A stretch of 64,000 nt of DNA, from positions 1,817 to 65,816 of the forward strand of contig JAJNBM010000003.1 in assembly GCA_021156165.1 (NCBI GenBank), in the 5' to 3' direction. The first letter of the stretch is position 1. Every line of letters starts with the position of its first letter. The stretch comes from Gammaproteobacteria bacterium (GTDB lineage: Bacteria; Pseudomonadota; Gammaproteobacteria; UBA1113). The notes under the pieces are model-generated. The model was given only the letters and a program-made list of their open reading frames with translations, did not search any database and had not been told where the DNA came from. The translations under genes were made by a program, and so were the position numbers. Shown in pieces: positions 26,978 to 27,262 of the stretch.

Positions 26978-27262
26978 TTAAACCCTCTTTCATCCGGACT
27001 GATACTCTTGGGAGTAAATACCGTCGGCTTTGGAATCTCACCAAATCTGCTGACCTTTTTATGCTCTTCGCAGTTGATTCTTAGACTTTATTGCCTTCGC
27101 TCCTCTCGCACCAGCATGTAGAGTATTACCCTCCTGGTGCTAGGAGCCTCGCCTAAGAATCAACTGCTATGAGCACCTCTCTAAAAAGCGCTCGCGGGCT
27201 GTACTGGTATTTTTAACCCAGATCACCGCCGGTGGGGAATTTCACCCCGCCCTGAAGGTTTG
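26978..27262 (-). promoter_or_regulatory. FMN riboswitch (RFN element) in the ribD leader, interrupted by a MITE in P4
   Basis: The reverse complement contains CTTCAGGGCGGGGTGAAATTCCCCACCGGCGGT...AGCCCGCGAGCG, then ...GATTTGGTGAGATTCCAAAGCCGACGGT...AGTCCGGATGAAAGAG. All conserved RFN blocks are in the correct order. Confidence 0.8.
27064..27173. mobile_element. MITE-like palindromic element, copy R1
   Basis: Terminal inverted repeats cttcgcagttgattcttag ... ctaagaatcaactgc, with an internal palindrome caccag..ctggtg. Homologous copies at 41270, 47582, 56077 and 59353. Confidence 0.6.

Follow-up and report, generated by a model that had tools for sequence, protein, structure and literature searches.

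We consider it probable that a 64,000-nucleotide stretch of DNA (the window), part of the metagenome-assembled genome of an uncultured gammaproteobacterium, contains a working flavin mononucleotide (FMN) riboswitch in the leader of ribD, both peripheral loops of which (those of helices P4 and P6) have been invaded by one TA-duplicating family of MITEs (transposable elements of the miniature inverted-repeat type), and that the predicted structure tolerates these insertions. The Rfam model of the FMN riboswitch, RF00050, matches positions 26978–27263 on the minus strand over its complete length (model positions 1–138) with 92.1 bits (E = 7.8e-20). The gathering score of RF00050 is 66.2 bits, and the window aptamer (RFN element) thus passes membership by covariance score. 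This match in the native sequence lies upstream of ribD-ribE-ribBA-ribH, and it confirms the FMN riboswitch of the rib operon that a preliminary description of the window had claimed at this place. Because of the two insertions, the aptamer measures 286 nt instead of approximately 146 nt. In the covariance model alignment by cmscan, two blocks stay unaligned, one in the P4 loop (129 nt for 8 positions of the model) and one in the P6 loop (20 nt for 3); the remaining model positions are aligned with high posterior probability. The preliminary description had correctly placed an insertion in P4, but it took this to be the sole interruption, which is wrong, as the P6 loop holds 17 extra nt. It had also regarded every RFN block as intact. 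The consensus blocks of P1–P6 all align, with a single non-standard pair (the third one of P4, which is flagged in the relatives too), but the L6 loop sequence GGUAU...AGUCC is retained in a form split by 17 nt, and the blocks listed in that description skip 19 nt between GACGGU and AGUCCGG.

The designation of the fourth hairpin as P4 follows the F. nucleatum numbering and was checked against the strands of a two-piece crystal construct, in which strand A ends with ...CCACGAAUCC-AU and strand B starts with GGAUU-GAUUUGGUGAAAUUCC (PMC3201879). Because this construct is split between the CGCGA/CCACGA block and P5, as is the window aptamer, the fourth hairpin is P4.

Contigs of relatives, designated here by L numbers, were chosen by RibD at 56–79% identity to the window; a scan of genome contigs with RibD gave distant homologues only (at most 49% identity), none from the clade. 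A neighbour-joining tree of the four Rib proteins has the topology (L066,(L063,(window,(L059,(L061,L062))))), with bootstrap support of 88% for L061 and L062, 73% for these two with L059, and 69% for the four-member clade that includes the window; the window and L062 are sisters in 1% of the replicates. A P4 insertion with the same junction and orientation as in the window is found in two related species, L059 (RibD 79%) and L061 (RibD 76%), both of which have an intact P6 loop. In L059, and equally in L060, L098 and L099, the MITE sets the core blocks 144 nt apart, whereas L061 carries a degenerate, shortened MITE in the same place and scores 109.3 bits. A MITE-free allele, which the preliminary description had envisaged among the ribD leaders of relatives, does exist: L063 (RibD 72%) has an empty P4 site, GAGCGCUUUUUUAAAGGUCAGC, with an intact P6 loop and a score of 124.9 bits. 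L066 (RibD 56%) has a 9–10-bp P4 stem, CUUUUUAUU(G)/(C)AUAAUAAAAAG, with no insert there and none in P6 (GGUUAAAGUCC), and L001 (RibD 49%) has a P4 of GCGUUUUUU/AAAAAACGC with no insert, an intact P6 loop and 122.3 bits. The insertion-free relatives thus score 122–125 bits against RF00050. The contigs of L064 and L065 are too short to cover P4, and those of L100 and L101 end before the riboswitch.

The MITE copy in the P4 loop spans 27062–27175 on the minus strand. It is 114 nt long with the ends TGCTC...GAGCA (nhmmer E = 7e-35), is predicted to fold as a hairpin of −58.2 kcal/mol, and holds a 17-bp perfect stem, GCAGUUGAUUCUUAG(GC)/CUAAGAAUCAACUGC. The preliminary description had recognised a family member here but trimmed it to 27064–27173; the true span is 27062–27175, or 27063–27174 if measured between the repeats that it named. 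The MITE is flanked by the strands CUUUUUA (27182–27188) and UAAAAAG (27055–27061), whose proposed pairing is reproduced in the fold of the isolated arm. Because MITE-free L066, in which P4 is closed by the same stem (CUUUUUAUU/AAUAAAAAG), and L001 show such a stem, these flanks represent the ancestral P4 stem. Between the 5′ strand of this stem and the MITE, GAGAGG (27176–27181) reads as a remainder of the old P4 loop. UAAAAAG opens with two bases (27060–27061, TA) that represent the right-hand copy of what is presumed to be a target duplication; the left-hand TA is no longer recognisable in the window, where the right-hand one alone survives. At the left junction, the counterparts of GAGAGG are AGAAUA+UA in L059 and AA+UA in L061. 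The right junction, GAAGAG(T/C)A-TA-AAAAGGTC, is identical in the window and L059, and L061 reads GA for TA. Judged from these junctions, the entry point of the MITE is a TA at the 3′ edge of the P4 loop.

When folded in isolation, the three MITE-bearing P4 arms each form a single hairpin (−62.5 kcal/mol in the window, −55.8 in L059 and −35.2 in L061) that is closed by CUUUUU(A)/(U)AAAAAG and has the same topology as the MITE-free L066. The MITE-free arms have predicted energies of −0.8 (L063) and −6.2 kcal/mol (L066). The near-perfect long hairpin that the preliminary description saw in the MITE is therefore also the predicted fold of the whole window arm, with CUUUUUA/UAAAAAG as its closing stem.

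The second interruption consists of 17 extra nt in the P6 loop (L6) at 27001–27017 on the minus strand. The relatives have GGUAUAGUCC as their P6 loop, and the window has GGUAU-U-UACUC-CCAA-GAGUA-UC-AGUCC. Within it, the segment 27003–27016 (TACTC-CCAA-GAGTA) is 14 nt long and consists of two 5-nt MITE termini joined by 4 nt, which together can form a 5-bp mini-hairpin. Because UACUC and GAGUA are exactly the MITE termini, and because a MITE end lies at the same junction in L062, the window L6 carries a 14-nt MITE stub. The contig of L062 starts inside the MITE, and the 3′ end of the element, ...CTAAAAATCAAATGCGAAGAGTA, adjoins the junction TC-AGTCCGGATG, which is identical to that of the window (GAGTA-TC-AGTCCGG). 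The L6 copy of L062 may be complete, with the contig beginning inside the element. The motif AAAGGTCAGCAGATTTGGTGA is conserved far beyond the clade, and its 31 matches in metagenome contigs are unrelated FMN riboswitches, which served as a survey of natural variation in P3, P4 and L6. Three of them (L068, L083 and L092) have hairpins of 18–35 nt in L6 between GGUA(A) and (A)AGUCC, and by this comparison the L6 site of the stub is a naturally permissive position. We infer that the position of the L6 insertion mirrors that of P3a, which interrupts L3 in the same three riboswitches (GGU-AA-[helix]-C-AGCC), and this would fit the pseudo-twofold layout of the aptamer. In a fourth unrelated metagenomic riboswitch of this survey, L080 (approximately 2520–2715), the P3 loop has an insertion of approximately 120 nt made of the palindromes GTCATTCCGGACTTGATCCGGAATC and ATTTCCCACCTTTGTGGGAATGAC. 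It resembles another repeat element, a second copy of which was not found in the 4.7-kb contig.

The elements in P4 and L6 belong to a dispersed family. The terminal inverted repeat proposed in the preliminary description has five matches with at most three mismatches in the window, where 0.00 are expected. When the 64 kb were searched with a profile built from the copies, four full-length members (E = 1e-35 to 1e-44) and a single short one were found. Copies are 114–135 nt long (short forms, 62 and 92 nt) with terminal repeats of approximately 25 nt, TACTCATAGCAGTTGATTYTTAGGC, and each folds as a single long hairpin of −0.35 to −0.57 kcal/mol per nt. The ends of the element are defined by comparing a filled site in L101 and L098, GCGCA-TA-[TACTCC...GGGTA]-TA-GTATAGC, with the empty site in L100, GCGAG-TA-GTATAAC; the element therefore ends in TACTC...GAGTA and duplicates TA. 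The profile search gives two copies in 21 kb of L098, and in a syntenic region of approximately 20 kb shared by the window, L098, L100 and L102, lineage-specific copies are found at three places: the window copies w41 and w47 (described below) and the L098 copy at 819–950. No copy is present at the place corresponding to w47 in L098, L100 or L102. As a short, non-coding sequence with terminal inverted repeats, a TA duplication, dispersed copies and presence/absence differences, the family is by its sequence features a MITE in the usual definition. The TA duplication suggests a source that we presume to be IS630/Tc1-like. No profile match was found beside the transposase genes of L059 and L098 (HTH_38+rve), L061 (IS66) or L102 (Transposase_31) in the approximately 200 kb of the clade examined, and none in the viral contigs or the plasmid collection searched. 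Shortened derivatives (w41 with 62 nt and the L061 P4 copy with approximately 92 nt) suggest that internal deletion of the hairpin is a common fate of the copies. The change from TACTC/GAGTA to TGCTC/GAGCA at the termini of the P4 copy is compensatory, and locus-specific selection at the RNA level was considered for it; this was rejected, as w47, which lies outside a riboswitch, shows TATTC/GAATA.

Whether the interrupted riboswitch still works was judged from the constraint on its sequence and from its predicted folding. Over 113 nt, the aptamer core is 96.5–98.2% identical among the three carriers of a P4 MITE and 94–97% identical to L063 with its empty site. Four-fold degenerate sites of the rib genes are 47–55% identical among the carriers and 40–55% identical across the genomes compared. 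Of the two outcomes that the preliminary description had entertained, a tolerated lengthening of P4 and inactivation of the switch, the former is favoured by the apical-loop position of the insertion, the retention of the ancestral stem, the conservation of the core, promoter and sequestor (see below), the intact rib reading frames, and the folding of all three arms as one hairpin. Unconstrained folding of the whole aptamer recovers P1, P2, P5 and P6 (z = −6.3), and enforcing the P4 stem gives −110.1 kcal/mol, only 0.8 above the minimum of −110.9 kcal/mol. The crystallised F. nucleatum FMN aptamer, which is split at P4 and has a solvent-exposed L4, still binds FMN (PMC3201879).

Several points weigh against a working switch. 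The case for function is built on conservation and folding, and if the P4 copies were recent independent insertions, decay would not yet have set in and the conservation of the core would carry little weight. The P4 copies are approximately 85% identical between species over aligned columns, far above the neutral level, and they are therefore either young or under constraint. The closing stem of P4 has a probability of only approximately 0.1 in the unconstrained ensemble, as GAGCGCUUUU can pair instead with AGAGGUGCUC, and co-transcriptional folding could be delayed by this competing hairpin. Two tertiary contacts, L2-L6 and L6-P2, involve L6, so that binding could be weakened by its stub. Relative to the insertion-free relatives, the Rfam score drops from approximately 125 to 92 bits, and a duplex of 17–22 bp could be a substrate of RNase III.

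Part of this evidence would also be expected of a crippled riboswitch, in which the P4 insert, the L6 stub or both slow or prevent folding, so that expression of the operon is fixed, either constitutive or permanently sequestered, and the core looks intact for lack of time to decay. The deficit of the window aptamer relative to the empty allele (92.1 versus 124.9 bits), the capture of the P4 5′ strand and J3/4 by the competing hairpin in the minimum-energy fold (P4 stem probability, approximately 0.1), the role of L6 as a tertiary-contact loop, and the clustering of the P4 copies with copies of their own genomes, as expected if they are young, all fit this explanation. However, the P4 insertion has three carrier species, and the copy in L061, shortened and with degenerate repeats, is clearly old, while its core is unchanged and its aptamer still scores 109.3 bits. 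Both insertion sites are naturally variable in FMN riboswitches, the expression platform and promoter are conserved in the carriers, and each of several carriers would need to have been caught just after inactivation. A crippled switch is accordingly rather improbable in our judgement.

A different reading of the similarity of the P4 copies is that the P4 hairpin has been co-opted and is kept by selection, as an RNase III site that sets the half-life of the mRNA or makes a two-piece RNA, or as a docking site for a protein or a small RNA. RNase III cuts the intervening sequences of 23S rRNA and the Correia elements of Neisseria, and the P4 copies contain stems of 17–22 bp. Their identity of approximately 85% between species compares with approximately 47–55% at four-fold degenerate sites, and P4 is the sole MITE site found to be shared between species, with w41, w47 and the L098 copy at 819–950 being lineage-specific. 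However, copies outside riboswitches are similarly conserved between genomes; since all members of the family are alike in this respect, the conservation is a property of the family and not of the P4 locus. Moreover, the outgroups L063 and L066 manage without a P4 MITE, and the P4 copies fold no better than other copies. We therefore give co-option little credence, about as little as a crippled switch, and retain the working, insertion-tolerant riboswitch as the preferred explanation.

The history of the P4 site is less certain. We lean slightly towards a single old insertion that has been kept in at least three descendant species, on the basis of the junction sequences. Orientation and right junction are the same in the three carriers, and of the loci compared, L063, an outgroup, is alone in showing the empty site. 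In addition, the ends are decayed. The window has GG...TA around TGCTC/GAGCA, L059 and L061 share a derived GACTC end, and the young copy in L101 and L098 is flanked by a perfect TA/TA. Two comparisons of the central region of the element speak against a single insertion: the P4 copy of the window is more similar to the other window copies (0.75–0.80) than to the L059 P4 copy (0.70), and the L059 P4 copy best matches another copy of its own genome (0.83).

These comparisons would be expected if the P4 loop, and likewise the P6 loop, were a hot spot that was hit independently at the same TA in the lineage of the window and in that of L059 and L061. In the central region, the copies cluster by genome and not by locus; other MITE sites turn over fast; the similarity of the P4 copies is too high for neutral orthologues; and L6 is filled in two lineages, those of the window and of L062, that pair as sisters in just 1% of the replicates, while L6 is intact in L059 and L061. 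On the other hand, independent hits would have to reproduce an identical right junction and orientation in three species. The decayed duplications and termini, including the GACTC end shared by L059 and L061, and the restriction of the empty site to the outgroup, with 69% support for the carrier clade in the four-protein tree, also count against a hot spot, and clustering by genome is equally produced by gene conversion among copies or by seeding from a P4-like source. Independent insertion is possible but the less likely of the two histories, and the rest of the probability goes to mixtures that involve gene conversion or allele exchange. It is unlikely, although conceivable, that the MITE prefers TA in hairpin loops, with P4 and L6 as recurrent targets that were reached independently in several species, or that the P4 copy has long been kept for regulation (as an RNase III site or a second input). 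If long-lived and protected by selection, the P4 copy could also have been the source of newer copies within each genome.

Downstream of the aptamer, the leader contains the elements of a putative translational expression platform. The end of the aptamer is 95 nt from the start codon of ribD (26880–26882) on the same strand, in the 5′ leader of the riboflavin synthesis operon. A sequestor hairpin is predicted at 26878–26919 (minus strand) between AUCAUUCGCCC and GGGUGAAUGAU, with 11 pairs that are kept in nearly all of six related leaders; GGGUGAAUGAU includes both the start codon of ribD and the purine-rich region for ribosome binding. Between the aptamer and the sequestor, RNAalifold on the six leaders predicts a hairpin at 26937–26958 (minus strand), AAGCACCGC/GGCGCUGCU followed by a U-rich tract, whose pairs are kept through two-sided changes. 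It is possibly a weak terminator or a spacer helix of the expression platform, and a simple terminator scan did not call it. By eye, CAGGGCG could pair with CGCCCUG as an anti-sequestor. Upstream, a consensus scan finds a promoter-like site, TTGACA-17 nt-CACAAT, at 27268–27296 on the minus strand (10 of 12 positions match); a transcript from it would begin a few bases ahead of the aptamer. The block TTGACAGACC...CACAATA at this site is kept in L059, L061 and L063, and the sequence farther upstream is unalignable. No promoter-like or terminator-like site was found by the consensus and terminator scans on the sense strand inside the P4 MITE. In L064 (RibD 79%), an unrelated G+C-rich segment, GGGGGCCTGCCCCTACGCGCATTCCCGC..., at positions 1–50 replaces the hairpin that separates aptamer and sequestor, and could represent a further insertion or a join made in assembly.

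The riboswitch may accommodate its insertions as follows. Because the element is a long inverted repeat, its RNA would simply extend the 7-bp ancestral P4 stem as a hairpin of approximately 50 bp, which would point away from the six-helix junction, and the element in L6, reduced to a 14-nt stub, would form a 5-bp mini-hairpin where other FMN riboswitches also have a helix. The junction could then still assemble, together with P1 and the contacts between P2 and P6 and between P3 and P5, and FMN would still bind. Binding would close P1 and lock the 5′ CAGGGCG segment into the aptamer, leaving AUCAUUCGCCC free to pair with GGGUGAAUGAU and to hide the ribosome-binding region and the start codon of ribD. 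Without FMN, competition for that arm of the sequestor, by CAGGGCG or by the 3′ strand of P1 once released, would let translation proceed. Sequestration of a start site would be a slow, equilibrium-like form of control, and the extra 146 nt and the competing local hairpin would for that reason be of less consequence than in a terminator switch under kinetic control.

Stem-loops formed by "variable insertions" at specific sites are a known property of riboswitches, and the T-loop-type loops of the FMN class are sometimes interrupted by a helix (Barrick & Breaker 2007, PMC2258182). The P4 insert of the window resembles them in being a non-conserved, stable stem-loop at a permissive site with the core intact, and natural examples in our survey are L068, L083, L092 and L080. 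In contrast to them, it has a traceable origin in a mobile repeat that is dispersed, ends in terminal inverted repeats, duplicates TA and is polymorphic for presence or absence. The P4 inserts of the window and L059 are also unusually long (129–144 nt where the model expects approximately 8). The two-piece F. nucleatum aptamer (Serganov 2009; Vicens et al. 2011, PMC3201879) is likewise interrupted at the P4 loop, folds and binds FMN, and base-pair swaps in its P4 are tolerated (PMC3201879). However, it represents an engineered loop deletion studied in vitro, whereas the window has a natural addition of a hairpin of approximately 50 bp. The nearest published case that we found is a BOX element in the trp leader of S. 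pneumoniae (Croucher et al. 2011, PMC3049150), a small interspersed repeat that is also co-transcribed in a riboswitch-controlled leader, and RNA-seq suggested that regulation still works there (PMC3049150). This BOX element lies between two complete T-box riboswitches and not within an aptamer helix, and it belongs to another element family and another phylum. Hairpin-forming MITE families are known from the related intracellular gammaproteobacterium Coxiella burnetii, in which the copies of QMITE1 and QMITE2 number in the tens and overlap with small RNAs as well as genes (Wachter et al. 2018, PMC5896051). QMITE1 is 300–400 bp long with variable repeats of 2–4 bp and QMITE2 is 150–190 bp long with repeats of 7–11 bp (PMC5896051), whereas the window family measures approximately 115–135 bp and duplicates TA; it thus differs from the QMITEs in size and duplication. 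A 2024 review of prokaryotic MITEs only speculated on links to riboswitches, and our literature search, whose coverage is incomplete, found no published MITE or other transposable element inside an aptamer.

The riboswitch is thus an ordinary member of RF00050, and the repeat family is new but represents an ordinary type of element; their combination is unusual. Hairpins or repeats at variable helix tips with retention of function are also known from the intervening sequences of 23S rRNA and the STRR repeats of cyanobacterial RNase P RNA, and RNase III excises the inserts of 23S rRNA. Unlike a ligand-sensing mRNA leader, the host molecules in these cases are stable RNAs, and cleavage of the P4 hairpin is only a possibility. 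The locus ties a riboswitch "variable insertion", a feature long unexplained in alignments, to a specific mobile element, and it illustrates one way in which such insertions arise. The stages of decay stand side by side, as a full copy, the shortened copy of L061, the 14-nt stub in the window L6 and the empty site of L063. The same locus is a natural experiment in aptamer modularity, as it reveals where, among its loops, a six-helix junction can take up more than 100 nt, in agreement with the engineered split at P4. Should the switch work, this helix would be validated as a natural graft site for large RNA modules on FMN riboswitches.

The L059 orthologue (3617–3900; also in L098 and L099) illustrates a consequence for annotation. 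It falls below the gathering score of RF00050 as two overlapping half-matches (45.4 + 39.1 bits), although its core is 98% identical, and the rib operon of L059 would be called unregulated by standard annotation. Riboswitches with mobile hairpins are therefore likely to be missed by the routine annotation of repeat-rich genomes. An assembly chimera was rejected as an explanation of the interrupted riboswitch, as the flanks are the halves of one riboswitch and the same arrangement occurs in the independent assemblies L059, L060, L098, L099 and L061.

The operon downstream, ribD-ribE-ribBA-ribH, extends over 23378–26882 on the minus strand with every open reading frame intact. It comprises ribD (25764–26882; Pfam PF00383 and PF01872), ribE (25162–25779), ribBA (23796–25034) and ribH (23378–23803), and the orthologous operons encode Lum_binding, DHBP_synthase+GTP_cyclohydro2 and DMRL_synthase domains (Pfam). 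RibD of the window (MCD6045004.1) is 48–49% identical to RibD of Coxiella sp. DG_40 and Aquicella.

The remaining copies of the MITE family lie elsewhere in the window. The full copy w47 is at 47577–47711 on the plus strand, downstream of recR (nhmmer E = 2e-43). Another full copy (56062–56195, minus strand; E = 7e-42) is located just upstream of tRNA-Leu(gag) (55982–56066), and one with a degenerate left end (59335–59466, minus strand; E = 8e-36) directly 3′ of tRNA-Arg(tcg) (59470–59546), where it is followed by the terminator-like sequence AAAAAAAGCCCGCGTTAAGCGGGCTTTTT. The short, internally deleted copy w41 (41268–41329, minus strand) can form a 17-bp hairpin. It takes up the spacer that separates rpoS from an outer-membrane beta-barrel gene, and it ends 13 nt before the rpoS start codon, adjoining the GAGG ribosome-binding site. 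In L098, L100 and L102, this spacer is only 34–35 bp long and has no profile match, and the translation signals of rpoS may therefore be affected in the lineage of the window only.

A second small repeat family of the clade, CGTCATTGCGAG ... GCAATCC, is found in L100 and L101 at 21130–21200, between a LOG-family gene and the ribD leader, and in L063 at 1540–1625, upstream of the ribD promoter. L101 has the same RpoS as L100, yet its 5′ end (the first 3.8 kb) has the MITE and the gene coordinates of L098, which suggests either strain-level recombination or a chimeric metagenome assembly. Directly downstream of ribH, a 449-residue open reading frame (21917–23266, minus strand) encodes coiled-coil repeats of the KYxE/KKIKELNE type and a Ser/Pro-rich tail, and the orthologous position in L059 is occupied by an ankyrin-repeat protein. 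Both are typical of the effector-like genes of intracellular bacteria.

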